Origin: Chiloscyllium plagiosum
Taxonomy: Eukaryota
DNA: 47,137 nucleotides
Direction of reading: 5' to 3'
Assembly: GCF_004010195.1 (NCBI RefSeq)
Contig: NC_057719.1
Span: 34,693,692-34,740,828 of the forward strand
Below are positions 6,405 to 44,984 of this stretch, one piece after another; position 1 is the first letter of the stretch, and every line of letters starts with the position of its first letter. The notes below the pieces were generated by a model that was not told the DNA's origin, ran no database searches, and worked only from the letters and a program-made list of their open reading frames with translations. The translations under genes and the position numbers were made by a program.

Positions 6405-6916
6405 TTGAAAGATATGAGTGCATTGGAAACAATGAAGAAGCAGTTTACAAGAATGGTTCTAGGAATGAGAAACTTCAGTTATGAGGATTGATTGAAGAAG
6501 TTGGGACTATTCTCCTTGGCGATAAGGCTGAGAGAAGATTTGATAGGGGCTGTCAAAGTGATGATTGTGCTAGATGGATAGGTTGGGAGAAGCTGATCCC
6601 ACTCATAAAAGATCAAAACTGAAAGTGCATAGATTTAAAATGATGTGCAAAGGAAACAAGTGTGATGTGAGAAAAAAAATTCACACAGCGAGTAGTAGGG
6701 TATGAAATACACTGCTTGGAAGTGTGGTTGCAGACAGGTTCAGTTGATGCATTCAAGGTGGCAATAGATGATTACTTGATTAGAAATAGTGTCCATGGGA
6801 ATGAAGGAGAAAGCAGGAGACTGGCACCGTATGATGATACTCATTTGAAAAGCCAGGACAGACATGATAGGCCAAATGGATTCTTTCTGCATTGTAACAA
6901 TTCTGTGACTCTGTGA
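6405..6916 (+). mobile_element. CR1 3' fragment
   Basis: RT C-terminal remnant (FTRMVLGMRNFSYED..KKLGLFSL) and tail ending attctgtgactctgtga. Confidence 0.8.
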
Positions 6917-7672
6917 AGTAAACATGATTCATAGAAAGTGGATGTTTTTTCAAGAGCATTAAACATTGGCAGTTAAGTAGCTATTAGACATCAGCGTGAT
7001 ACTAGTTTAGGCACAATAGGAACGGTGACCAAGTAATTACAAGTAATGGCTGTGGTTGGAAACAAATAACAGGCTTTACAAGGAAAACAATAATGCCAAC
7101 CTGGTTGAAGATCAAATTAAAGACAGCCTGTCAAGTTTCAAAATGCCAATGTCAAAACCCAAGCACAATGATCACATATTCATCACATTGGATCATATTG
7201 GGTCACATGATAGCCACTCTACCACAATGGAAAATAAGGCTCAGTGCCATGGTTCAGCTGCCTAGGAGAATATGGTATGCCAAAGACTAAAATAAATCAA
7301 GAATATCAATTGGGTGGTTTAAGTCAGAATCTGCTCTGCAGCGCATTGCAGCAAATGGATGCACAGTTCTTGCATGTATAATTGTAAATTTGTCTATTTT
7401 GCATTTTATAACAGCATCCATTTTCCTAATCAAATTCAAATGTGCAGCAGTACCTACACATAAGCAAATCAATACGCACACCAATTTGATTTAACCAGCT
7501 AGCGTTCATTGTAAATCACAAGTCATTGTGAATTTTATGAGATTCTCAGTGATTCCATTGAGAATGTAGTAATTTCAACTGGATCTATATTTTCTTAGTC
7601 CAATCCAATAAATGTCAAAAAGAAAGTAGAGGAAAGAAATCTACATGCTCCTTTGAAAAGTTGACAACAGTA

Positions 7673-7794
7673 ATCTAGCATAATCATCACTTTGAAAACC
7701 CCTATCAAATCTTATCTCAGCCTTATCTCCAAGGAGAATAGTCCCAACTTCTTCAATCTATCGTCATACCTGAAGTTTCTCATTCCTAGAACCA
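7673..7794 (-). repeat. 122-bp inverted copy of 6454-6575 (CR1 sequence)
   Basis: Reverse complement matches with about 8 mismatches and no indels. Confidence 0.85.
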
Positions 7795-8814: not shown

Positions 8815-9730
8815 AAGTTTAATTCAGACAAATGCGAGGTGAAGCTTTTTGAAGGATCAAATTCAGATCCAAATTATACAATAAATGGCAGAACCCTTAG
8901 GCATATTGACATACAGAATGATCTGGGCGTACAGGTCCACAGATCCCTGAAAGTGGCAACACAGGTGGATAAGGTGGTCAAGAAGGCATACAGCACCCTT
9001 GCTTTCATTGGCCGGGGTATCAAATATAAAAGTTGGCAAGTTATGTTACAGCTGTACAAAACCTTAGTTAGGCCACATTTGGAATATTGCATATAGTTCT
9101 AGTTGCCACACTACCAGAAGGATTTGGATGCTTTGGTGAGAGTGCAGGGGGAAGGTTTACCAGGATGTTGCCTGGTCTGGTGGGTTTTCTGTATGAGATG
9201 AGTTTGGATAAACTTATATTGTTTTCACTGGAAGTACAGAGGCTAAGGGGTGATCTGATAGAGGTCTACAAAATTATGAGATGCATAAATAGTCAAAGGC
9301 TTTTTCCCTGGGTGGAAAGGTCAACTATAAGAGGCACAGTTTCAATAAGACTTAGTACTGTATATTTATAAAGTGTATAATGGGTGAGTACATTGGTGGG
9401 ATGAGTAGTGAAGGGGTGTCTGGCAAATGTAGGACATAAGGAGATTGAAAGTGGTCAGGAGGATGAGAGAGTAAGGAAGGGGGGATGAGGAATGTTTAGG
9501 GGAGAAGTGCAGGGAAATGTTTTCACACACAGAGTGCTGAGTGTCTGGAACACACTGCCAGTGAAGGTAGTGGAAGCAGGTACATTAACAATGTTTAAGG
9601 CAGATCTTGACAGACACACAAACGTGAAGTAAACAGAGGGATAAATACTGCACATGGGCAATAAGTAGCCCAGTAAGAATTGGCAGGGGTTTGGTGGGCC
9701 AAAGGGCCTGTTCCTGTGCTGTATTGCATT
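8815..9730 (+). mobile_element. CR1 3' fragment containing a 135-bp foreign insert (9345-9479)
   Basis: DLGVQVHRSLKVATQVDKVVKKAY, RLRGDLIEVYK; tail gggccaaagggcctgttcctgtgctgta. Confidence 0.9.
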
Positions 9731-10469
9731 ATATTATAAGCATTAGGTCTCTGTTTGCAGATACAACTAGCTTCTGGTATAGGCCCTGGACACCACTTTT
9801 GATGCAGACCCATGTATTTAGCACCCTCAACAAATAGATGGACCAAGGTTCCCTCTTCCATGTGTTCCAATTTTGAATGTAGGCAGCAATATTTACAAAG
9901 AAAACTAACCACTCATATTGAAAAAGTGGACAACATCAGGACATATGTGCATACTGGCAATTGCATGCGTACATACGGTGATGGAGGTGTAGTTCAGTCC
10001 CCATTACAGCAACTTGAATTCAGTCAAATCTTCATATTTTTGACACAAATTCGTATATCACAGGTGTCACTGGGAGATTTTATGTGTAATACGTCGATAT
10101 TGGTAGTCTTAAATCAGACATGGATCAAATGTTATGGCGGAAAATTTACAGTAAGCAAATGCAAACACAAGAGGCTTACTACCTTGTAAATGGTGTAACA
10201 ATTCTCATCCCAAACAAGAACAACTGGCATTGGAGGTGGTGTGGCCAGAGATGGGGCTAAAATTTTTCCAATGGAAGTGGGAGCCAGTGTTAACCCTGAC
10301 ATTGAAATCCTGCCACCGGCTCCAGCTGTGCCAGCTGACAGGATTTGCATCTCTTGGAAAGTAGAAGACCCTGAAGTTGAGATGGATGTTGGATAAACCT
10401 AAAGCAGTTAAAAGCCCACCTCCAGTTCCTGAACAATCAACTCAGTTCTTTAGGTTAGTGTAAAGTTCT

Positions 10470-10604
10470 CTTCCTTACTCTCTCATCCTCCTGACCACTT
10501 TCAATCTCTTTATGTCATACATTTGCCAGACACCCCTTCACTACTCATCCCACCAATGTACTCACCCATTATACACTTTATAAATATACAGTACTCAGTC
10601 TTAT
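10470..10604. repeat. Donor copy of the inverted 135-bp segment at 9345-9479
   Basis: Reverse-complement match with 3 mismatches in 135 bp. Confidence 0.92.
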
Positions 10605-11407: not shown

Positions 11408-11800
11408 TAGCGAGTTTTGAGAAGATTTGTAGCTCAGGTTGATGTAGGTTTGCTCGCTGAGCTGGAAAGTTCATTTCCAGACGTTTCACCACCCTAACAG
11501 GTAACATCTTCAGTGGGCCTCTGTGTGAAGCACTGTTGATAATTCCTGCTTTTTATTTAGGTGTTTGGGTTTCTTTGGGTTGGTGATGTCTTTTCCTCTG
11601 GTGACATTATTTCCTGTGGTGTCACAGGAAATGATGTCACTGCAGGAAATGACATCACCAACCCAAACAAACTCAAACATATAAATAGAAAACAAAAATT
11701 ATCAGTAATGCTTCGCCCGGAGGCCCACTGAAGTTGTTACCTAGTAGGGTGGCGAAACATCTGGAAATGAACCTTCCAGCTCAGTGAGCAAACCTATATC
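11408..11800. mobile_element. Penelope-like non-autonomous insertion (family B), inverted pLTR pair
   Basis: About 370-bp imperfect palindrome centred near 11620; 13-bp TSD caaacccatgaat (11395-11407 / 11801-11813); hammerhead motif in each arm. Confidence 0.8.
11477..11516 (-). ncRNA. Minimal type I hammerhead ribozyme motif (family B)
   Basis: CCA CUGAAGA U GUUACC uguuag GGUGGU GAAA C GUC UGG; the opposite-arm copy at about 11725-11764 (+) has core mutations. Confidence 0.7.
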
Positions 11801-12052: not shown

Positions 12053-13231
12053 AGAATAGGAGCAGGAATAGGCCATTCTGCCCTTTGAGCCTGCTCTGCC
12101 ATTTAAAATGATCATAGCTGATCACCCAACTCAGTACCCTGTTCCCACTTTCTCCCTTTATCTTTTGATCCCTTTAGCCCTAAAATATATCTAATTCCTT
12201 CTTGAAAACATTCAACATTTTGGCCTCAACTGCTTTCTATGGCAGAGAATTCCACAGGCTCACCACAAATCCCATCTCAGTCCTAAATAGCCTAGTCTGT
12301 ATCCTTAAACTGAACCCTGGTTCTGGACTGAAAATGTGTTGCTGGAAAAGCGCAGCAGGTCAGGCAGCATCCAGGGAACAGGAGAATCGACATTTCGGGC
12401 ATAAGCCCTTCTTCAGGAATCCCTGAAACGTCGATTCTCCTGTTCCCTGGATGCTGCCTGACCTGCTGCGCTTTTCCAGCAACACATTTTCAGCTCTGAT
12501 CTCCAGCATCTGCAGACCTCACTTTCTCCCCTGGTTCTGGACTCCCTGGTCATCCTTCCTGCATTTAGCTTGTTAGAATTCTATAGGTTTTCCATGAGAT
12601 CTCCCATCATTCTTCTAAATTCCAGTAAATACAATGCATCCAGCCCCTCTTCATGTGTCAATCCTACCATCCCAGGAATGCATGCTTATTGTCAGCAATT
12701 GGCATATAAAAATAGTCAGGTCTTGTTGCATCTCCCCCTTTCCCAATCCAACAGCATTCAGATAATATTCTGCCTTCCTGTTTTTGTCAAGGTAGATAAC
12801 CATATATTTATCCACATTATACTTCATTGGCCATGTATTTTCCCATTCACTCAACCTGTCTAAGTCACACTGAAGCACCTCTGCATCCTCCTCACAGCTC
12901 ACCACCAACCACCAACCACACAACCCCACCACCCACCTACCCAACCCATCCAGCTTTATATCATCAGCAAACTTGGAGATATTACATTTAATTCCCTCAT
13001 CTAAATCAATAATATGTATTGTGAATAGCATCCCTGCAATATCCCACTAGTTACGGACCATCACTCAGGAAAAGACCTCTTTATTCTTAATCTTTGTTTC
13101 CTGTCTTCCAACCAGCTTTCTATCATTGTCAGTACACCACCCCAATCCCATGAACTGTCATGTGACATGCTAATCTCTTTTATGGGACCTTATCAAAAGC
13201 CTTCTGAAAGTCCAAGTAAACCACATCCATA
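12053..13231 (-). mobile_element. CR1 fragments (3' end and RT), interrupted by the Penelope insertion at 12330
   Basis: Tail ataggagcaggaataggccatt; minus strand IIDLDEGIKCNISKFADDIKL and DFQKAFDKVP. Confidence 0.85.
12330..12528. mobile_element. Penelope-like inverted pLTR insertion (family A)
   Basis: Palindromic arms, 37-nt tail on the right arm, 15-bp TSD ccctggttctggact (12315-12329 / 12529-12543); minus-strand CUGAAGA AGGGC uuau GCCC GAAA UGUC. Confidence 0.88.
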
Positions 13232-22259: not shown

Positions 22260-22945
22260 CCATAAAAACATAGAAAACTGGAGCAGGCCATTTGGCCCTT
22301 TGAGTCTGTTCTTAGCACCCTGCTCCCACTTTCTTCCCAAACCCTTTGATCCCTTTAGATCAAAGAACTATTTCTAACTCTTTCTTGAAAACAATGTTTT
22401 GGCCTCAGCTGCTTTCTGTGGTAGAGAATTTCACAGGCTCACCACACTTTTCTCATCTCAGTCCTCAATGACCTACACCATATCCTTCGGCTGTGACCCC
22501 TGGTCTTGGTCTGCCTGGTCATCAGGAACATCCTTCCTGCATTTACCCAGGATAACCCTGTTAGAATCTTTTAGGTTTCAACAAGATCCCCACTCATGCT
22601 TCTAAATTCCAGTGAAGATAGTCCAAACCTGATCCATTCTTTCTTCATAAGTCAGTCCTGCCATGCCAGAAATCAGTCTGGGAAACCTTTGTTGCTCTCC
22701 TTCCATAGCCAGAACATCCTTCCTTAGATAAGGAGACTAAAATTTCACACAATACTCCAGGTGTTGTCTCACCAAGACCCTGTACAATTACAGCAAGGCA
22801 TCCTGTCCTCAAGTCCTCTTATTATGCAGACCAATATACAATATGTCTTCTTCACTGCCTGCTGCACCTACATGTTTACTTTCAGCAACTGGTGTACAGG
22901 AGTATCCTGCTCTGCTTCCACCTCCCATTTCCCAATTGATTACCA
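22260..22945 (-). mobile_element. CR1 3' fragment
   Basis: Tail cataaaaacatagaaaactggagcaggccatt; similar to the 12053 fragment. Confidence 0.8.
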
Positions 22946-23479
22946 TCATCCTTGGAGCGAAAACAAAGTTAGCATTTGAAGTGAGTGACCCTTCTTGAGA
23001 ATTGTTTGTTTCAGATCTCTGCAGCCACAGTTCTTTGCTTTATTATGTTAGAGGCAGCCATTTTTTTCACAGCACCAGCCACCTCTATTACTGGTCTTGA
23101 TGAAACCAATAGGTATCCAGCAACACATTTCCATCCCTGTACAATTACAGCAAGGCATCCTGTCCTCAAGTCCTCTTATTATGCAGACCAATATACAATA
23201 TGTCTTCTTCACTGCCTGCTGCACCTACATGTTTACTTTCAGCAACCGGTGTACAGGAGCACCCTGCTCTGCTTCCAACTCCCATTTCCCAATTGATTAC
23301 CATCATCCTTGGAGCGAAAACAAAGTTAGCATTTGGAGTGAGTGACTCATCTTGAGAACTGTTTGTTTCAGATCTCTGCAGCCACAGTTCTTTGCTTTAT
23401 TATGTTAGAGGCAGCCATTTTTTTTCACAGCACCAGCCACCTCTATTACTGGTCTTGATGAAACCAATAGGTTTCCAGC
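22778..23479. repeat. Tandem duplication of about 344 bp (22778-23121; 23135-23479) with a 13-nt spacer
   Basis: Near-identical direct copies; duplicated peptides in the ORF track (QLQQGILSSSPLIMQTNIQ). Confidence 0.95.
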
Positions 23480-33213: not shown

Positions 33214-33433
33214 AAGAGAAAATGAGGTCTGCAGATGCTGGAGATCAGAGATGGAAATGTGTTGCTGGAGAAGCGCAGCAGGTCAGGCAGCATCTAGGGA
33301 ACAGGAGAATCAACCTTTCGGGCATTAGCCCTTCTTCAGGATTCCTGAAGAAGGGCTAATGCCCGAAACGTCGATTCTCCTGTTCCCTAGATGCTGCCTG
33401 ACCTGCTGCGCTTCTCCAGCAACACATTTCCAT
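33214..33433. mobile_element. Penelope-like inverted pLTR insertion (family A), young
   Basis: Near-perfect palindrome 33250-33434 centred at 33342; 36-nt left tail; perfect 15-bp TSD caattatcaattttg (33199-33213 / 33434-33448). Confidence 0.9.
33339..33378 (+). ncRNA. Minimal hammerhead ribozyme motif (family A), intact core
   Basis: ggauuc CUGAAGA A GGGC uaau GCCC GAAA C GUC gauucu; predicted cleavage after 33372. Confidence 0.78.
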
Positions 33434-33964
33434 CAATTATCAATTTTGGCCAGTTTCATAGAGGGTTTCTCACCGTGTGCACTAGTAAACTTTCTCATGC
33501 TATTTTCCCAAACTCACCTCATTACTCATGTACAACATCAGAATGGTGTGCTGCTCATCACATTATCCCACTCAGTAAAGACAGTAGTACTGGCCACGGC
33601 CAGGACCTTCCAGAATCCCTGGCACTGGTGCAATTTTAAACACCGAACTGTGGACCCGGTCAAGTGCTGGCAGTCTTCAGCTGGCCTGTAGAATTCCTGT
33701 AAATTGTTCTGGATGCATTGGAACTAGGGCAGTAGCCACCTTGCTTTGTCAACAGGGAGGTGCTGATGAACAGGAGTTACATGTGGTTGCTTCCCATTGA
33801 GCGTACCAAGGTGTTGGTGATGGCTGGCGAGAAGCAGAGAGAATCGTGTTACCGCTCGGACTTTCATGTTGGGAATTATCACCACTCATTTCTATCCAGT
33901 GGATGGGAGAGTGGGAAACTGCATAGTATTGAGGGGAGAAGACGTAATGATACAGATGTTAATC

Positions 33965-35749: not shown

Positions 35750-35989
35750 CTTCTGTATTCCAACAAGTACAGGACCAATCTACTCAATCTTGTCTCATAA
35801 TACAGTCTGTCCTTACCTGGTATCAGCCCAGTGAACCTTCTCTGGATTACCTCCAATGCTAGTATATTTTTGCGCGGATAAGGGGCCCAAAAATGTTCAC
35901 AGTATTCCAGCTGTGACCTGACAACTGCCTAGTATAATCTTAGCAAAACCTCCCTACGTTGTATCCATATATCTATTGTTATAGATATA

Positions 35990-36051
35990 TAACTTGTGAC
36001 CTGACTGCCCCTACGTGACTTCTCCTTATCTTGATTAGATTCTACTTCTAT
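35990..36051 (-). repeat. 62-bp inverted copy of ERV LTR U3
   Basis: Exact reverse complement of 36896-36957 (and 44714-44775). Confidence 0.95.
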
Positions 36052-36322
36052 ATCTATAAAATAACTGCCAATATTCCATTTTCCTTCCCTATTATCCACT
36101 GAACTTGGATGCTATCTTTTTTGTGATTCATCGACGAGGACTTCCAAATCCCTCTGTTCCAAAGATTTCTGCAGTCTTTCTCCATTTAAATATTCAGCAC
36201 CTCAATTCTTCTTCATAACTTCACACTGCCATCTGCCAAGTTTTTTGAACAACCACTTAACCTGTCGATACCCCTCTGCAGACTCTTTGTGCCATTCTTA
36301 CCACTTGATCTTCCACCTATTC

Positions 36323-36662
36323 AGGTGGGGAAAGAGGTGACGGAGCTGAGTCCTTTGCTGAGGACAAAGCTTTCAGGGTCAGAGGGCATTATGAAGACCC
36401 ACCAAGAGAATAGATTGGAGAAAGGGAATGGGTCAAATGGACTTGAAGGAAAGAAGGGTCCAGAGATGTGTTTGCACACAATTTGTTGAAGCCTGCATTT
36501 CTTCAAACAATGAAATTGAACTGTGGACTTTGAGATGGAGGGAGTCACTGCTGCTGAAGCGACAGCTCAGGATTATGCATGTGGCATGTGGATGACTCTG
36601 AGAATGGATCACAGGATGCAGCAAGAATGATTGTGTAGAACGGTAGAATTCTGAGTGTTTAG
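36323..36662 (-). mobile_element. Old Penelope ORF fragment (N-terminal domain), left flank of the ERV
   Basis: SDPESFVLSKGLSSV and CHMHNPELSLQQQ resemble the vertebrate PLE N-terminal region. Confidence 0.6.
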
Positions 36663-37160
36663 TGTGAGAAATGGGGAAGGGTGTTGTTTTCGCAAATGTA
36701 GTAAAAAGGGTAGTGATAATAAGCTTAAGCATAGCACTGACAAACAAGTATAGAGGGCAGCTGCAGGCAAAGATCAGATTAGCAAACTTCTGGGAAAAAC
36801 AAGTTTGTGCAGGCAGAAAAGCAGAACAATAGAAAACACTAGCACAGCAAGTGTTAATATAGTTACAAAACGGTTGCAGCTAACGGCCCAAGGAGATAGA
36901 AGTAGAATCTAATCAAGATAAGGAGAAGTCACGTAGGGGCAGTCAGGTCACAAGTTAGGCAGAGAACTAGGGTGATTGGGTAATGTAGGAGTCGGGAGAG
37001 GTGACCTCTCGCAGCTCAAAGGTATAACTGTATACTTGTTTCAATGCTCATTGCTCATTTGCTTTAGCATTTGACGCCCTTTCTTGCAAGATTGGAAAAT
37101 AAATTGTCTTACTTCCAGTTTTGGTGGTCTTGGCTAACTTTGTTGAGTTTGTTTCTAACA
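36663..37160 (+). repeat. 5' LTR (498 bp)
   Basis: TGTGAGAAA...TTTCTAACA imperfect inverted ends; TATAA 37023-37027; AATAAA 37098-37103. Confidence 0.96.
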
Positions 37161-37164
37161 GACT

Positions 37165-37182
37165 TGGGGGCTCGTCCAGGAT
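37165..37182 (+). other. Primer binding site, tRNA-Pro
   Basis: TGGGGGCTCGTCCAGGAT, 17/18 match to the MLV PBS-Pro TGGGGGCTCGTCCGGGAT. Confidence 0.92.
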
Positions 37183-37491
37183 CCCAAGCTCTGGTCACTC
37201 GGCATTCTTGAAGAAACGGAAAAGGTGCACCTCGCTGATTTTGGCGATCTCTAGTTTCCCCTTGTTGCTGTGGCGCCTTTGGGCGAGCGTGATCTGGACG
37301 GAAAGACCCTGGAAACAAGATGGGAAGACACAGCGGGTTCGGTCGGGTAACTCTTGTGCACAAGACCCAGGAAAGGAAAGGTCTCTCGAGATATATCCGG
37401 GCGACCGGGAATTTGCAAAAGTAGCTGTTGCGGGAATTGCCGCGCGGGTAACGGCCGAATTGACACGACCAGGTAACTCTGTACACCAACC

Positions 37492-37500
37492 AAGGTAAGA
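37492..37500 (+). promoter_or_regulatory. Probable major splice donor of the ERV leader
   Basis: AAG|GTAAGA between PBS and gag. Confidence 0.55.
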
Positions 37501-37748
37501 AAAGGACCTTTAAGTGTTGCCTTGGTGATCGGGGACGTACGAGAAGTACAGGGAATTGGCGATGTCTAAAAATAACATATAATTGGTCAGATTGATCGGA
37601 CGGGAAAGGGTGTCAACCTGACTCTAGCAGCCAGCCTTAGACCGGTTGTTAAGAAGGGAAATCCCCCACGTGCAGGTCAGGAACCTGAAGTGGATGTGGA
37701 AGAAGGTGGCACCGGACCTCGAAAAGATCAATTAAATTCAAGAAAAAA

Positions 37749-39294
37749 ATGGGAGGCAAGGGAAGTTGTCTCTATAAAGATCGATCTACAGATAATGTTA
37801 AACTTGAAGAAATTCCATCCGACAGTCCCTTGGGGAAAATGTTGGGAAATTGGGAACACAACTCCCAGACATGGGGGAAAGATAAAGTTATAATCATAAG
37901 GTATTATTGTTTTGTCTGGACACAAGAAAGTATTAAGAAATCTGAAATCTTTTGGCCCAAATATGGGTCCGATGAAGATTGGCTGTGCCAAGATTTAAAT
38001 ATATATGTTAATAGCAAAGAGAAACAAAGCCGACAAGAGGCTGATTATGCAGTCTGTTGGATAGGGAGCCAAAATATGTTTGTCTTAAAAAAGAAAGAAA
38101 GGGAGGAAAAGGATGAAAAATACCCAAAACTCCCCATTGGGACCCTTTGTCAAATTTACCTCCCCCTTATTACAACAGAAATGACAGTCCACGGTCCATC
38201 ATCTCCCAGCGACAGTCGACCGTCGTCCCAGCCCTCTGCACCGCCAGCAGAGGAACCCCCGGAAGAGGAACCTGAAAAAAGCCCAGAAGAGGACTCCACT
38301 GTGAGTCAGGTTAAGACTAGATCAGCAGGAAGGAGAGAAGAAAGGGAATAAGGCGGGGCAACACAGGTATATCCTCTCAGAGAGGTCCCCATTGGAAACA
38401 GCGAAATTGGATATGTTAATGTGCCGCTGACCAGTGGGGAGGTCAGAGCCTTTAAAAAGGAAATGAAAAATCTAATTGAGGATCGCGTGGGATTGGGGGA
38501 GCAGTTCGACCAGTTTTTGGGGCCAAATTGGTATACCTGGGGGGAAATGATGGCAATATTGGGGACATTATTCTCAGGAGAAGAAAGGGGTATGATCAGA
38601 AGGGCCGGTCTGAGGGAGTGGGAAAAGAGATACCCTCCGGGTAAAGAAGTAACTCCGGCTGAACAAAAATTCCCTAATACAGATCCCCGATGGGAGGGCA
38701 TGAATGCACATGATAGGGGAAGCATGAGAGACTTTCGGGAAATGGTGATCTTGGGAATTAAGGAAGCAGCACCAAGATCACAAAACTTTGTTAAGGCTTT
38801 TGAAGTAAGGCAGGAGAAAGACGAAATCCCTTCAGCGTTTCTTCAAAGGCTCAAAGAAGCCACAAGGAAATATTCGGGAATCAATCCTGATGACCTGGTG
38901 GCGCAAGGACTTTTGAAGGTCAGTTTCTGACAAAGTCATGGCCGGACATACAAAAGAAATTGCAGAAAATAGATGGATGGAGTGAAAAACAAATGGAAGA
39001 GTTGTTACATGAGGCACAGAAAGTGTATGTGAAGAGAGAGGACGAGAAGCAGAAGCAGAAAGCTAAAATGATGGTGGCGGCAGTAATGAAATAACAAAGA
39101 GGAGATTAGGATCGGGAGATAATAAAAAAGTTAAGGATATAGGAGGACACGAAAGACAAAGGTCGGATGTCCAGGGAAGGAGGCAACAGGCGGGATGTTA
39201 CCATTGTGGAAAAGTGGGGCATTTTAAACGAGAATGCCCTGGACTAACGCAGGAAAAGGGAAGCTGTTTCCCTATTGACATTTGATGAAGACTG
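37749..39294 (+). pseudogene. gag: ERV Gag (MA, PPPY and PSAP late domains, CA, one CCHC zinc knuckle)
   Basis: MGGKGS myristoylation signal; NLPPPYY and QPSAPP; MHR QEKDEIPSAFLQRL; CYHCGKVGHFKREC; several frameshifts and stops. Confidence 0.93.
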
Positions 39295-42200
39295 GGGAGT
39301 CAGGGGCTCCTTCCTTCTGAAACCCACCGGGAACCCTTGATAAATCTAAAGGTGTGACCTGAAGGGGAGGAGGCAGTGTTTTTGGTGGACACGGGAGCGG
39401 CACGGTCATCCCTAAGTTTTAGACCTACCGGTGTTAAATTGACAAATAAGAATCTCAGGGTTTCTGGAGTAAAAGGTGGAGAATTCCTAGTGCCTATTTT
39501 TGAGCCAATGCTAATTAGAGTAAATAACGAGGAAGTGACAGGACAATTATTGTATATTCCCGACATTGGAAGTAATCTATTAGGTAGGGATTTGATTATC
39601 TTGTTAGGCTTAAAAATTGGGTGGAAAACAGTGCAGTGACCGTAAAGATGGCCATGTTAACACCATGTTAACAAATCAGCCCTGATGTATGGGCAAGACC
39701 GGGTAATACAGGGCATCTAACTATTACTCCGATGGTAATTACGTTAATTCAGGAGAATAAGACAGTTTGGGTTAGACAATACCCCATATCACTGGAAGGT
39801 CATAAAGATCTCCAACCAGTTATAGATTCTTCGTTAAAAACCGGATTGTTAGAACCCTGTATGTCACCCTTTAATACCCCAATACTGCCTGTCCGCAAAC
39901 CAGACGGAACCTATCGATTAGTGCAGGATCTCACAGCATTGAACCGATTGGTTCGAACACGACACCCGGTAGTCCCCAATCCGTACACTTTGCTAGGCAA
40001 GATACCGTGTGACCACCGCTGGTTTAGTGTAATAGATTTAAAGGATGCATTCTGGGCCTGCCCTCTGGCTCCAGAAAGCTGTGACATGTTTGCCTTTGAG
40101 TGGGAAAACCCATACACTGGTAGAAAGCAACAATTCCGATGGACGGTACTTCCCCAGGGATTCACAGAATCACCTAATCTATTCAGGCAAGTACTGGAAC
40201 AGGTCCTGGAACAACTTGAGATGCCTAAAGGGACTTCACTGTTACAATATGTGGACGACCTACTTGTGTCAGGACGAAAGAGAGATGATGTGAGCTTGGC
40301 CACCAATAAGCTGTTAAATTTCCTAGGGCAACAAGGTTTAAGAGTATCTAGGAATAAATTGCAATATGTAGAGAAAGAGATGAAATATTTAGGGCACCTT
40401 GTTAGTGAGGGTACTAGGCGAATTAACCCCGAGAGAATTAAAGGAATAGTAGAACTACTCCTCCCGACCACCAAACGAGAATTACGGAAGTTCTTAGGGC
40501 TAGTGGGCTATTGTAGATTATGGATAGAAGCATACGCCCAGAAAACAAAGGGGTTATATTATAAATTGACAGAATCTGAACATGAAAGACTACACGGGAC
40601 AGAAGAGGAAAAGGAAGGGTTACATGAGTTAAAGCGTAGTTTATTACAAGTTCTGGTGCTGGCTCTTCCTTCCCTCAAGAAACCATTCCACCTTTTTGTG
40701 ACACTAAATGATGGAGCAGCCTTAGGAGTGTTAACCCAGAAGGGAGGGGGAAGGAGGCAGCCNNNNNNNNNNNNNNNNNNNNNNNNNNNNNNNNNNNNNN
40801 NNNNNNNNNNNNNNNNNGTCAGAACTGTGCTAAGCCAAAAGGCAGGGAGATGGTTGACAGACTCACGAATCTTAAAATACGAAGCTATCCTGATGGAGAG
40901 AGATGACCTCGTGTTAGCAACAGATACCTGTCTAAACTCAGCTACCTTCCTATGGAAGGGAGAACCTCTGGACAAATGAGAATTAGAACACAACTGCTTA
41001 GATATCATTGAGTATCAGACTAAGGTTAGACAGTTTCTAAAAGATATTCCCTTGCATGTTGGGGACAGACTGTTTATAGACGGATCATCAAGAGTGGTAC
41101 AAGGAAAAAGACACAATGGATATGCAGTAGTGGATGGTCACAAGAACCAAACAGTTGAGGCTGACCGGTTGCCTAACACATGGTCGGCCCAAACTTGTGA
41201 GTTGTATGCATTAAACCAAGCTTTAAAACAACTAGAAAATCAGGATGGGACAATTTACACTGACACTAAGTATGCCTATGGGGTGGTCCATACCTTCGGA
41301 AAAATATGGCAAGAACGTGGACTATTCAATAGCCGGGGAAAGGAATTAGTACACGAAGAGTTAATAGGACAAGTGTTGAAATGTTTGGAATTACCACGAG
41401 AAATAACAATAGTTCATGTACCAGGGCACCAAAGGGGAACATTCTAGAAGCAAGAGGAAATAGGCTAGCAGACGAAGCAGCCAAAGAGGCAGCTATGAAC
41501 CTTACAGTAACAAAAATACAGGTTCTCACACCCCTAGTGGAGTCTCCTTCCGTGAACCCCATGTACACGAAGGAAGAGGAAAAAGAATTCCAGGAGATAG
41601 GAGCCACTAAGACAAGGGAAGGAAGATGGATTCTCCCGGATGGGAGTGAAATGTTGAGTAAACCAGTCATGAGAAACATTCTAAATACCCTGCACCGAGG
41701 CAGTCACTGGGGCTCTCAAGCCATGTGTAGCATAGTGTTAAGGGAGTATGGATGTAAAGGGATATACACATTAGCCAAGCAGGTATGCTCAGGATGCCCG
41801 ATTTGCCAAAAGATTAATAAAAAGGTAACAATAGGAGGGCAAAAAGGTGAAAGGAATCCCGGGGTAAGACCTTTTCAGAGCATACAGGTCGACTGTACAG
41901 AATTACCCCCGGTAGGGAAACAAAAGTATTTATTAGTCATAGTAGACCACTTAACCAGGTGGGTAAAAGCTTTCCCAATGTCTTCAGCTACCTCAAAAGG
42001 AGTAGTGAAAACGCTCCTTGAACATATCATCCCACAATATGGAATAGTGGAAACTATAGATTCAGACCAAGGTACCCTTTTTACTTCTAAGAGCTTACAA
42101 GGGGTAATAGCAGGATTAGAAATTTTGTGGGAATTCCATACTCCTTGGCACCCACCCTCCTCTGGACGGGTGGAAAGAATGAATCAAACCTTTAAGAAGC

Positions 42201-42726
42201 AATTATCAAAGTTAGTCCTAGAGACCCGATTACCACGGACTAAATGCTTATCTATTGCACTATTACGCATTCGGATGGCCCCGAGGCATGATATCGGACT
42301 TTCTCCTTATGAAATGATGTTTGGGCTGCCATTCCTGGGAGGGAAGGGAAAGGTACCCACGGCCGAGTTTAATGACAAGTTTTTGAAAACTATATTGTGG
42401 CACTTGGCTCTTCATTATCTGTTCTTAGGAATAAAGGTCTTTTCGTACAGACAGCACCACTCGAGTTTGCAGTACATCGGATATGACCAGGTGATTGGAT
42501 CCTGATAAAGACCTGGAAGGATACCAAACTACACCCGAGCTGGGAGGGACCATTCTTAACTCTCCTGACTACCGAAACAGCCGTCCGAACTGCAGAAAAA
42601 GGGTGGAGTCATCACACTTGTGTTAAGGGCCCCGTGGATGCTCCTTCCCCTTCGGCAGAGTGGCAAGCTCATCCTACAGACAACCTTCTGAAAGTCAAGC
42701 TGAGTAGGAAGACTGGACTGAAATAA
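39295..42726 (+). pseudogene. pol: ERV Pro-Pol (PR, RT, RNase H, IN); contains assembly gap 40763-40817
   Basis: FLVDTGA..LLGRD; LPQGFTESP, YVDD; FIDGSS, IYTD, GNRLAD; HHCC, D-D-E (QVD, SDQG, VERMN), WEGPF. Confidence 0.96.
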
Positions 42727-43135
42727 TAATTGCTGCCATTGACTTTAAAATTTGCTGCTACTGATTGTAAGGGTTGCGTGGACTCACTTCTCCCAGACGA
42801 CTACAAAAGGGGGAAAGAAGGCAGGAAGGCGGACAGAGGTAAGAGATGAGTGGGTATTGGTAAAGTGTTGTAATGATATTCATACTGACGGTTCAAGGAG
42901 ACGGGAAAAATCATTTTACTTCCCGGACTGAAATAATAATTGCTGCCATTGACTTTAAAATTTGCTGCTACTGATTGTAAGGGTTGCGTGGACTCACTTC
43001 TCCCAGATGACTACAAAAGGGGGAAAGATAGGCAGGAAGGCGGACAGAGGTAAGAGATGAGTGGGTATTGGGAAAGTGTTGTAATGATATTCATACTGAC
43101 AGTTCAAGGAGACGGGAAAAATCATTTTACTTCCC
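42715..43135 (+). repeat. Tandem duplication of 210/211 bp at the pol-env boundary
   Basis: 42715-42924 and 42925-43135; 4 differences. Confidence 0.95.
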
Positions 43136-44379
43136 TATGCCAACATTATGCTGAACAAAAGAGACTTACCGACTGTTGGGTCTATGCAGAGATCCCTCAC
43201 CACAGCTAATCGGGGATCGCCATCTTGATAATACCACTTACCAAAAGCGAAGTTTATGATGCCCAACAATTTGACTGGGGCTCAAATAATACAAGGTAGA
43301 GATCCGAGAGGGATCACTATAACTTTGAAGGATGGTTCCCTCAACTCGCCCCTAAAACCCTGGGTCCTATTAATGGACTTAGCATTCATCTGCCAACAGG
43401 AACAGTAAACGCCGCTTGTTTCTGTAATCAGAATGATACTGCCCCCTTCCAATTAGGAAAATCATCTTGCGTCTACACTAACCGAGCCACGGCCACGAAC
43501 ATTCCCCCATTATTAAACGGAACCTATTGGATATGCCGGTCCAAGGCATATGCCAGGCGAAAAGTACATATGGAGTGGCGGTTGCACCGGCAGTAAATGT
43601 TGGGACAATCCAGTAAAACCTCAGACATTACCACAGAAACAAAAAAGCTGGAGTGGCTGCTGTTACCCCACTTATATAGTCCCCCACCTCCAGATAGAGA
43701 AACATGACACTCTGAAAAAGGAAAAGGGAATAAGCCATAAAATCTGAGAGGTCTCTGAATGGGACCGTTTCTAGTGGACATTATTCCCAAAATACGGCAT
43801 TGCAAGGGCGAGGAGAGAAATACAGAAACTGGCGGCAGCCCTTGAAAAATTGGTTAATGATACTGCTGACTCATTTAGAGAAACTGAGTCCCAAATAGTG
43901 GCCATAACCACCGAAATGATGGCCACGAGACTAACAACTTTACAGAATCGAACGGCTTTAGCCTATATCTTGGCCGAAAAGGGGGAACATGTGCTTTAAT
44001 CGGTAAAGAATGCTGCACTTTCATCCCAGATAGCTCTTCCATGGTGGAAGAAAAGGCAGAGATAATAAGGAAAAAGATAAAAGATATAAGAGAAATAGGG
44101 AATGAACTTCGGAAAGATAAAGGAACAGGGCGGGGATGGGGTGACTGAGGACTGATGGGCTGGGAAAAGTGGTTAGTCAATCTAGCTATCTATGGATTTT
44201 TGATATTAGTGGGTCTGGTCGTAGGGTTCAATGTCCTCAAGTGGATAATGAGCCGACTGATGACGTCCCTTGGGGAGGGGACTCAAATACATCATCAGAT
44301 GCTTTTACAATCAACAGGTGACGTGCAACAGAGGGAAAGTCAAAGAATGCTCCTCGAATTCAAGAGACGAAAGGGGTAA
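43057..44379 (+). pseudogene. env: ERV Env, gamma-type (SU and TM)
   Basis: Signal-like MSGYWESVVMIFILTVQG; TDCWVY (decayed CxxC); HKI* probably a decayed furin site; ISU LQNRTALAYILAEKG; CALIGKECC (CX6CC); TM anchor WLVNLAIYGFLILVGLVVGF. Confidence 0.92.
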
Positions 44380-44460
44380 CGTGATACCGTGTATAAGATT
44401 GTGAACCTCTGTACCTTAGAGTGTAAAGAGGGCAGAAATTACAAAAACAACAAGATGCAA

Positions 44461-44479
44461 AAGAAAAGAAATGGGGGAG
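44461..44479 (+). other. Polypurine tract
   Basis: aagaaaagaaatgggggag just before the 3' LTR. Confidence 0.85.
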
Positions 44480-44480
44480 T

Positions 44481-44978
44481 TGTGAGAAATGGGGAAGGGT
44501 GTTGTTTTCGCAGATGTAGCAAAAAGGGTAGTGATAATAAGCTTAAGCATAGCACTGACAAACAAGTATAGTGGGCAGCTGCAGGCAAAGATCAGATTAG
44601 CAAACTTCTGGGAAAAACAAGTTAGTGCAGGCAGAAAAGCAGAACAATAGAAAACACAAGCACAGCAAGTGTTAATATAGTTACAAAACGGTTGCAGCTA
44701 ACGGCCCAAGGAGATAGAAGTAGAATCTAATCAAGATAAGGAGAAGTCACGTAGGGGCAGTCAGGTCACAAGTTAGACAGAGAACTAGGGTGATTGGGTA
44801 ATGTAGGAGTCGGGAGAGGTGACCTCACGCAGCTCAAAGGTATAACTGTATACTTGTTTCAATGCTCATTGCTCATTTGCTTTTGCATTTGACCCCCTTT
44901 CTTGCAAGATCGTAAAATAAATTGTCTTGTTTCCAGTTTTGGTGGTCTTGGCTAATTTTGTTGAGTTTGTTTCTAACA
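44481..44978 (+). repeat. 3' LTR (498 bp)
   Basis: About 14 substitutions and no indels versus the 5' LTR. Confidence 0.96.
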
Positions 44979-44984
44979 GATTAG

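Follow-up and report, generated by a model that had tools for sequence, protein, structure and literature searches.

A decayed class I provirus of a bamboo shark with HERV-IP/ADP-related gag-pro-pol genes and an envelope of shark-and-ray type

A 47,137-nucleotide (nt) stretch of the Chiloscyllium plagiosum genome (assembly GCF_004010195.1, contig NC_057719.1, positions 34,693,692 to 34,740,828), referred to here as the window, carries a provirus on its plus strand at 36663-44980. This provirus is probably an old, coding-dead class I endogenous retrovirus (ERV) that combines HERV-IP/ADP-related gag-pro-pol genes with a shark-and-ray envelope, and it belongs to a multi-copy family likely to have spread within elasmobranchs. 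It displays the full layout of two long terminal repeats (LTRs) enclosing a primer-binding site (PBS), gag, pro, pol, env and a polypurine tract, bordered by a target-site duplication. Together with a reverse transcriptase (RT) closer to those of gamma- and epsilonretroviruses than to those of other genera, this layout and duplication place it among class I ERVs of simple proviral structure.

The affinity of gag-pol is best seen in the RT, which is open over 39672-40762 and includes a YVDD motif. The best matches are proteins of catsharks (Scyliorhinus), followed by those of a ray, a skate, a snake and many birds. Over at most 270 residues, identity is 75-76% to catshark proteins (67% for a third catshark row), 63-71% to rays and a skate, 68-70% to HERV-ADP-type, 60% to HERV-IP-type and 63% to snake sequences, while birds of the same clade reach 57-66%, two of their rows being aligned partially or with large gaps. 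Identity is 44-49% to sequences resembling murine leukaemia virus (MLV) and 39% to L033, a locus labelled as a walleye-type epsilonretrovirus by its layout and cyclin gene, which we take to be the walleye retrovirus. In a first RT tree, for which 56 of 121 RT proteins were offered and 55 kept (one aligned over fewer than 170 residues), the window RT falls into a clade with sharks, rays, birds, a snake and the HERV-IP/ADP types (45 of the 55 rows; support 100/100). The same clade, comprising 22 of 35 rows, is supported at 100/99 in a second tree made from 28 rows of the first and seven virus loci. The window RT joins two catshark rows and one unlabelled row at 95/87, and in the first tree the birds form a subclade of their own (96/83). 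With its 44-49% RT identity to MLV-like gammaretroviruses and its place in a separate clade, the provirus is not a member of that group.

An earlier note on this DNA, made from the letters alone, had named grouping of Pol with epsilon-like viruses of fishes, congruent with host phylogeny, as the result that would overturn its view; this did not occur. An epsilon-like fish ERV that co-diverged with its host would suit a class I element in a fish, and the ERVs of the elephant shark are described as epsilon- or snakehead-like in the accessible text of Han 2015 (PMC4422223). Yet such an origin is extremely improbable, as the RT is just 39% identical to L033, the single epsilon reference, accessory genes are absent, and forcing either the window RT (approximately unbiased test, p 0.0009) or all elasmobranch rows (p 0.0006) to group with L033 was rejected.

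Among human ERVs, sequence comparison supports HERV-ADP, followed by HERV-IP, as the group closest to the window gag-pol. The RTs standing in for these groups are four database proteins chosen for their resemblance, by eye, to the consensus RTs of HERVIP and HERVADP. As defined by Vargiu et al. 2016 (PMC4724089, available in part), the HERVIPADP supergroup consists of HERV-IP/HERVIP10 with LTR10 and HERV-ADP/HERVP71A with LTR71; that study separates HERVIP from HERVI proper, placed in the HERVERI supergroup, and the HERVI/HERVIP distinction is called problematic. All six Gag motifs listed in the earlier note are present, at 37812, 37905, 37950, 38424, 38508 and 39014. In the accessible supplement of PMC4724089, DSPLG and FWPK each occur three times; apart from one DSPLG position that is not displayed, these matches lie in HERVIP and HERVADP, and DQFLGP occurs once, in HERVADP. 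The provirus also has the HERVIP markers of a proline PBS, one zinc knuckle, a GPY/F module and no dUTPase. The likeness to HERV-I/HERV-IP proposed earlier thus stands for gag-pro-pol with regard to HERV-IP/ADP, by motifs and RT clade, but the closest group appears to be HERV-ADP, and Vargiu et al. keep this supergroup apart from HERVI proper. The element is best described as HERV-IP/ADP-related in gag-pol only, and as a related lineage rather than a HERVIPADP member proper, because its envelope has an LQNR-type and not a WENR-type immunosuppressive domain (ISD). A longer-protein search with the N-terminal part of Gag passed one of 777 candidates, which is weak evidence of absence, and a viral-contig scan with a single RT gave no match. 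One ERV RT of the same clade (P0091), located on a contig of 770 nt, bears the species label Klebsiella pneumoniae and is likely animal contamination.

The envelope has other relatives. Its transmembrane subunit (TM) is of the gamma type anticipated in the earlier note, with an ISD, a CX6CC motif and a membrane anchor, and although the match of the window TM piece to TLV_coat is weak, its E-value of 0.01 falling short of the curated cut-off, its homologs match above that cut-off. With a TM piece of 67 residues as query, 22 relatives were detected in a set of 1.84 billion representatives; of the 20 that were looked up, 11 have species names, and all 11 are elasmobranch. Identity is 70% to Chiloscyllium plagiosum, 62-69% to Stegostoma, 61% to Carcharodon, 53% to Pristis, 48% to Scyliorhinus, 45% to C. 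punctatum and 40-43% to rays, and the similarity continues through the surface subunit (SU). The ISD is LQNR-type in the window, whereas it is WENR-type in HERVIPa/b, HERVADP, ERVPb1 and the ChiRV1 type. By these features, the envelope is not of the HERV-IP/ADP type and appears to be of a shark-and-ray one. The nearest RT relatives and the named envelope relatives being elasmobranch also agrees with the shark host suspected beforehand, and the envelope neighbours make a carpet shark the probable host. A word-index search with the same TM piece passed none of 60 candidates and a PDB search with it gave no match, while an Atlas search gave no more than a lead, in the form of two chordate clusters (0.94 and 0.91) and one TLV_coat cluster (0.89). 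Long open envelopes of the window's type (P0192, P0199 and P0204; 421-525 residues) were observed in sawfish and stingray and are possibly env genes kept by their hosts. Sawfish and stingray are live-bearing.

All four genes of the provirus are broken. Frameshift-aware comparison with homologs located at least 19 stops or frameshifts, namely at least five in gag, three in pro, four in pol and seven in env; the count for the nucleocapsid (NC) region is uncertain, the reference having no normal NC. The gag gene (37749-39295, end approximate), encoding matrix, capsid (Gag_p30) and one CCHC knuckle at 39196, has frameshifts near 38070, 38175 and 38925, a stop at 38349 and further breaks in the NC region. 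The pro gene (39296-39670, limits approximate), recognized by an RVP match, has stops at 39355 and 39669 and a frameshift near 39618. In pol (39672-42726), which encodes RT, RNase H and an integrase with a GPF-type C-terminal module, stops lie at 40977 and 42484 and frameshifts near 41444 and 42391. Finally, env (43057-44379, plus strand like the others, with a presumptive start codon) has stops at 43207, 43297, 43745, 43772 and 44146 and frameshifts near 43550 and 43975. Pfam matches follow in the expected order of Gag_p30, zf-CCHC, RVP, RVT_1, RNase_H, integrase domains and MLVIN_C. The description of the provirus as complete in the earlier note is therefore right for its layout but not for its coding capacity, as every gene is broken.

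The window holds one old copy of a multi-copy family found in three species. Sequencing runs of these species contain 28-32% of the sampled words (19 rows at that level) at ~96% identity, and mapping three DNA runs on env, the 3' LTR and the flank yielded 502, 537 and 426 contigs, most of them 90-99% alike. In one species, organism A, summed depth is 210-2400 over env versus 13 at the single-copy flank, a ratio that is not a copy number. A contig of organism A spans the 3' junction with a difference at one site and two gaps in 1463 nt; because of this near identity, organism A is likely the window's species and would share the insertion. Related copies are transcribed and polyadenylated, as 58 reads from ~2% of an RNA run of organism A mapped to the provirus, of which 57 are below 95% alike, one is at 95-99% and none reaches 99%, so that the reads are not assignable to the window's copy. 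In 25 RNA reads, poly(A) begins at 44935-44936, 14 nt past the AATAAA at 44916-44921, marking the R/U5 border.

The age of the insertion can be approached from its LTRs. The 5' LTR (36663-37162) and the 3' LTR (44481-44980), both on the plus strand, align without gaps and differ at 14 of 500 nt (2.8%; Kimura two-parameter distance 2.86%; 95% interval 1.5-4.7%), which reproduces the divergence given in the earlier note. The flanks differ at 45 of 1293 nt in organism B and at 22 of 908 nt in organism C (23 of 339 nt in a second piece of C), the flank contigs of B and C beginning 128 and 174 nt from the junction. The two LTRs of a provirus, like two orthologous flanks, have each diverged since a common origin and so record double the time that has passed; the insertion is accordingly about as old as the splits between these species. 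In years, the LTRs date to ~65 million years (My; 35-106) at the shark rate assumed in Han 2015 (PMC4422223), and to 14 My at 1e-9, the rate being uncertain; with the former, the accessible text of that paper dates LTR divergences of 2.4-3.3% to 54-75 My. For the epaulette shark, a measured mutation rate of 7e-10 per generation is given in the available part of PMC10587355. The earlier description of the provirus as fairly recent is thus not supported, since its LTR divergence equals that of flanks between species and corresponds to ~65 My at the Han 2015 rate; as a caution, an LTR divergence of 2.8% is old in a shark. Among the 14 LTR differences, half are transversions and five are A/T transversions, above what is usual for neutral decay, in small numbers.

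The earlier note had further suggested that cross-class transmission lay behind the insertion. A fairly recent jump from an amniote, bringing a HERV-I/IP-like virus into the shark lineage, would explain an RT 68-70% and a capsid 63% identical to mammalian-type sequences, and it recalls the lemon-shark ERV, thought to reflect cross-transmission (Han 2015, PMC4422223, in its accessible text); at a mammalian rate, the 2.8% would amount to just ~6.5 My. Such a jump is nevertheless very unlikely, since the closest RTs come from another shark order and from rays, the named envelope neighbours are elasmobranchs of several orders, the family is common to three species, the genes have at least 19 breaks, and shark mutation rates are low (PMC10587355, in part). 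A cross-class jump behind this insertion is accordingly not upheld: both RT and envelope have their closest relatives in other sharks and rays, and the tests reject monophyly neither of the elasmobranch rows (p 0.147) nor of the amniote rows (p 0.136).

An older host jump somewhere in the clade is plausible, yet RT alone cannot order the host events, because neither of these monophyly constraints was rejected; for the all-elasmobranch test, two unlabelled rows were added to the elasmobranch group after inspection of the tree. Over an RT core of 147 residues, the shark sequence is 69-70% identical to the HERV-ADP type, which comes near the 72-78% that foamy-type genomes show among themselves. 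The latter presumably come from hosts of different mammalian orders. Foamy viruses have co-diverged with their hosts across mammalian orders for ~100 My. It could be speculated that elasmobranchs were the hosts in which the HERV-IP/ADP-related clade diversified, and that several older jumps, combined with envelope exchange, carried it to mammals, snakes and birds. In both best trees, the HERV-IP-type and HERV-ADP-type rows branch from separate elasmobranch groups or lie between these, away from the bird clade, and the identity of the RT core looks too close for a host split of 450 My. However, the attachments are supported at just 90/77 and 89/78, the test does not reject a single amniote clade (p 0.136), the tree has neither root nor direction, and rates differ between viral lineages. 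This scenario, possible though on the unlikely side, is compatible with the history preferred here and adds a direction that is not demonstrated. More tentative still is its fullest form, in which sharks and rays would be the HERV-IP/ADP reservoir with a shark-specific env, at least two passages to mammals (IP and ADP) would have occurred with an env swap long after the host split, and GA-ended integration, discussed below, would be a trait of the family.

Spread of the family within elasmobranchs thus remains the favoured account, and several points weigh against it. The deep forks within the clade are weak and the tests leave the host order unsettled (p 0.147 and 0.136), the HERV-IP- and HERV-ADP-type rows were labelled by eye against published consensus sequences and are not named references, and the age in years depends on the assumed rate. 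The envelope search covered 67 residues and nine of the 20 relatives looked up are unlabelled, so amniote relatives could be missed. Furthermore, an armadillo Gag is as close to the window Gag as a ray Gag is (capsid 63% of 183 versus 60% of 106 residues; matrix 56% versus 44%), which fits poorly with simple long-term confinement to elasmobranchs. The armadillo protein represents a multi-copy Gag family with long open frames in Dasypus novemcinctus (cluster P0122, 43 members; capsid 63% identical).

By analogy with gammaretrovirus biology, we infer the following history. The ancestor would have been a simple gamma-like retrovirus priming on tRNA-Pro, with Gag-Pol made by read-through at the end of gag and Env from a spliced RNA, possibly using a donor-like site at 37495. 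After germ-line entry, many copies would have been made, and neutral decay of the window's copy would then have gone on for roughly the time that has passed since the three host species split. The mismatch between gag-pol and env with respect to human HERV-IP/ADP may go back to the exchange of an envelope in one lineage or the other. For the long-known link between shark and human ERVs, a whole provirus is now at hand; the link applies to gag-pol and does not extend to env, so that an envelope exchange would set the shark branch apart from the human one. Dense sampling would make it testable in which direction HERV-IP/ADP jumped between water and land; otherwise, the provirus is ordinary as a single dead copy.

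The remaining parts of the provirus complete the picture, those between the target-site copies lying on the plus strand. The left target-site copy TTAG lies at 36659-36662 (36657-36662 if the duplication is 6 nt) and the right copy at 44981-44984 (44979-44984 with one mismatch if 6 nt). The 500-nt 5' LTR starts with TG and ends with CA at 37160 or CAGA at 37162. It is followed by a PBS for tRNA-Pro at 37165-37182, as proposed before, with one mismatch to the PBS of eight reference retroviruses, and by a candidate major splice donor in the leader (37492-37500), suggested by its match to the consensus. A polypurine tract occupies 44458-44479. The env stop is only ~80 nt away from it, too short a distance for 3' accessory genes, whose absence the earlier note had correctly described. 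No accessory gene was found before gag, where the leader frames are stop-to-stop only; the 15 frames scanned with Pfam gave no match to a dUTPase or G-patch, the gag-pro junction showed no folding signal (z -0.02), and ARAGORN and Rfam scans of the window gave no match. Between the pol stop and the presumptive env start, a short open frame with CxxC (42730-42846 and 42940-43050) was observed, which may be an extended env leader.

Two features bear on the integrity of the locus. An assembly gap of 55 N within pol (40763-40817) is shorter than the corresponding stretch of homologs, and a tandem duplication of 210 and 211 nt, 98% alike, covers the end of pol and the start of env (42715-43135, plus strand). 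Its units show four differences in 211 nt (1.9%), similar to the LTR divergence, and the 210-nt duplication at the env start fits an old, real event as judged from its sequence. Alternatively, the assembly may have merged several family copies into a mosaic over part of the locus, in which case the LTR divergence, the breaks and the env duplication would not stem from one insertion. The N gap, the tandem duplication, the many near-identical paralogs and the fact that the best sequencing runs contain just a third of the sampled words are all in line with a mosaic. It is still unlikely, as the target duplication matches at both ends of the provirus, the 3' LTR-flank junction lies on one organism A contig at single-copy depth with one difference and two gaps in 1463 nt, and the duplication units diverge by 1.9%, comparable to the LTRs.

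The right end of the LTR deserves attention on its own. The earlier note had placed the provirus end at 44978; CA lies there, with CAGA at 44980, and the two LTRs agree two bases past CA, through 44980. If the LTR ends at CAGA, the PBS follows after the usual 2-nt spacer and the two 4-nt target copies (TTAG) match perfectly; if it ends at CA, the spacer is 4 nt long and the target copies, then of 6 nt, differ at one position. In all eight reference viruses with a proline PBS, CA and two bases precede the PBS; another copy of organism A likewise has four bases between CA and PBS, and in a loose end of a more distant relative the LTR is left directly after CA. The LTR may end in GA rather than CA, as read from the sequence of one locus only, and if true, a GA end would be an exception to the integrase-processing rule. 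Searching metagenomes with a 19-nt LTR-end pattern gave 13 matches, none extending beyond 26 nt and all attributable to chance, and no paper on a GA-ended vertebrate LTR was found, most subscription papers lying outside the search.

The provirus is set among decayed repeats resembling long interspersed nuclear elements, which we take to be of CR1 type. A 65-nt inverted LTR piece (64 of 65 nt alike; 35990-36054, minus strand) lies ~0.6 kb upstream of the provirus; it is bracketed at 35980-36058 by a 9-nt inverted repeat and looks like a templated repair insertion from the nearby LTR. Elsewhere in the window, at 11441-11800, 12328-12493 and 33243-33441, short repeats form head-to-head inverted pairs whose arms are separated by 1-16 nt. 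Inverted pairs spaced by ~1 kb (6454-7794 and 9345-10604) possibly mark the termini of non-autonomous DNA transposons. A tandem duplication of ~357 nt, 97% alike, is found at 22778-23479.

The original papers on the lemon-shark ERV are said to be those of Martin et al. in 1997 and Herniou et al. in 1998. As cited in the accessible text of Han 2015 (PMC4422223), this ERV is close to a human ERV and was thought to result from cross-transmission. It shares with the window provirus the position of a shark ERV near human class I ERVs, a likeness taken from description alone, and differs in being a single fragment, whereas the window contains a whole provirus with env and LTRs. In the available part of Xu et al. 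2018 (PMC6001957), cartilaginous-fish retroviruses are dispersed through the tree, with many jumps between water and land. Chen et al. (bioRxiv 10.1101/2021.11.23.469661), as far as that preprint is accessible, report ERVs with gamma-type Env in six cartilaginous fishes, with more than 500 copies in three of them, and 46 orthologous groups in Chiloscyllium, together with gamma-related Pol clades and Pol/Env incongruence. Env-bearing shark proviruses are thus better described than the earlier note had supposed, being already published for the bamboo shark and other cartilaginous fishes. No paper naming the window's family was found, which is weak evidence, as most subscription papers and the supplements of Chen et al. 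lay outside the search. The ERVs of Chen et al. resemble the window provirus in bearing env, in their gamma-related Pol and in their Pol/Env mismatch, and the window's family is likely among their lineages; the window provirus is a new example of a shark ERV lineage already in print. The elephant-shark CmiERVs, in the accessible text of Han 2015 (PMC4422223), are likewise complete env-bearing proviruses of a cartilaginous fish with LTR divergences of 2.4-3.3%, but they are epsilon- and snakehead-like, unlike the gamma-like window provirus. The avian class I ERVs ChiRV1 and avigamma1 belong to the same broad clade (RT 57-66% to birds), as does the armadillo Gag family (capsid 63%). Finally, the HERVIPADP supergroup shares with the window element the Gag motifs, the protease start, the RT clade, the proline PBS (as in HERV-IP), a single zinc knuckle, a GPY/F-type integrase end, the lack of dUTPase and an A-rich composition (33% A). 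It differs in that the window element resides in a shark, HERV-ADP uses PBS F, the envelopes of HERVIPa/b and HERVADP combine a WENR-type ISD with a different fusion region and, by eye, a different SU, and the HERV-ADP envelope is of the ChiRV1 type, which that of the window is not.

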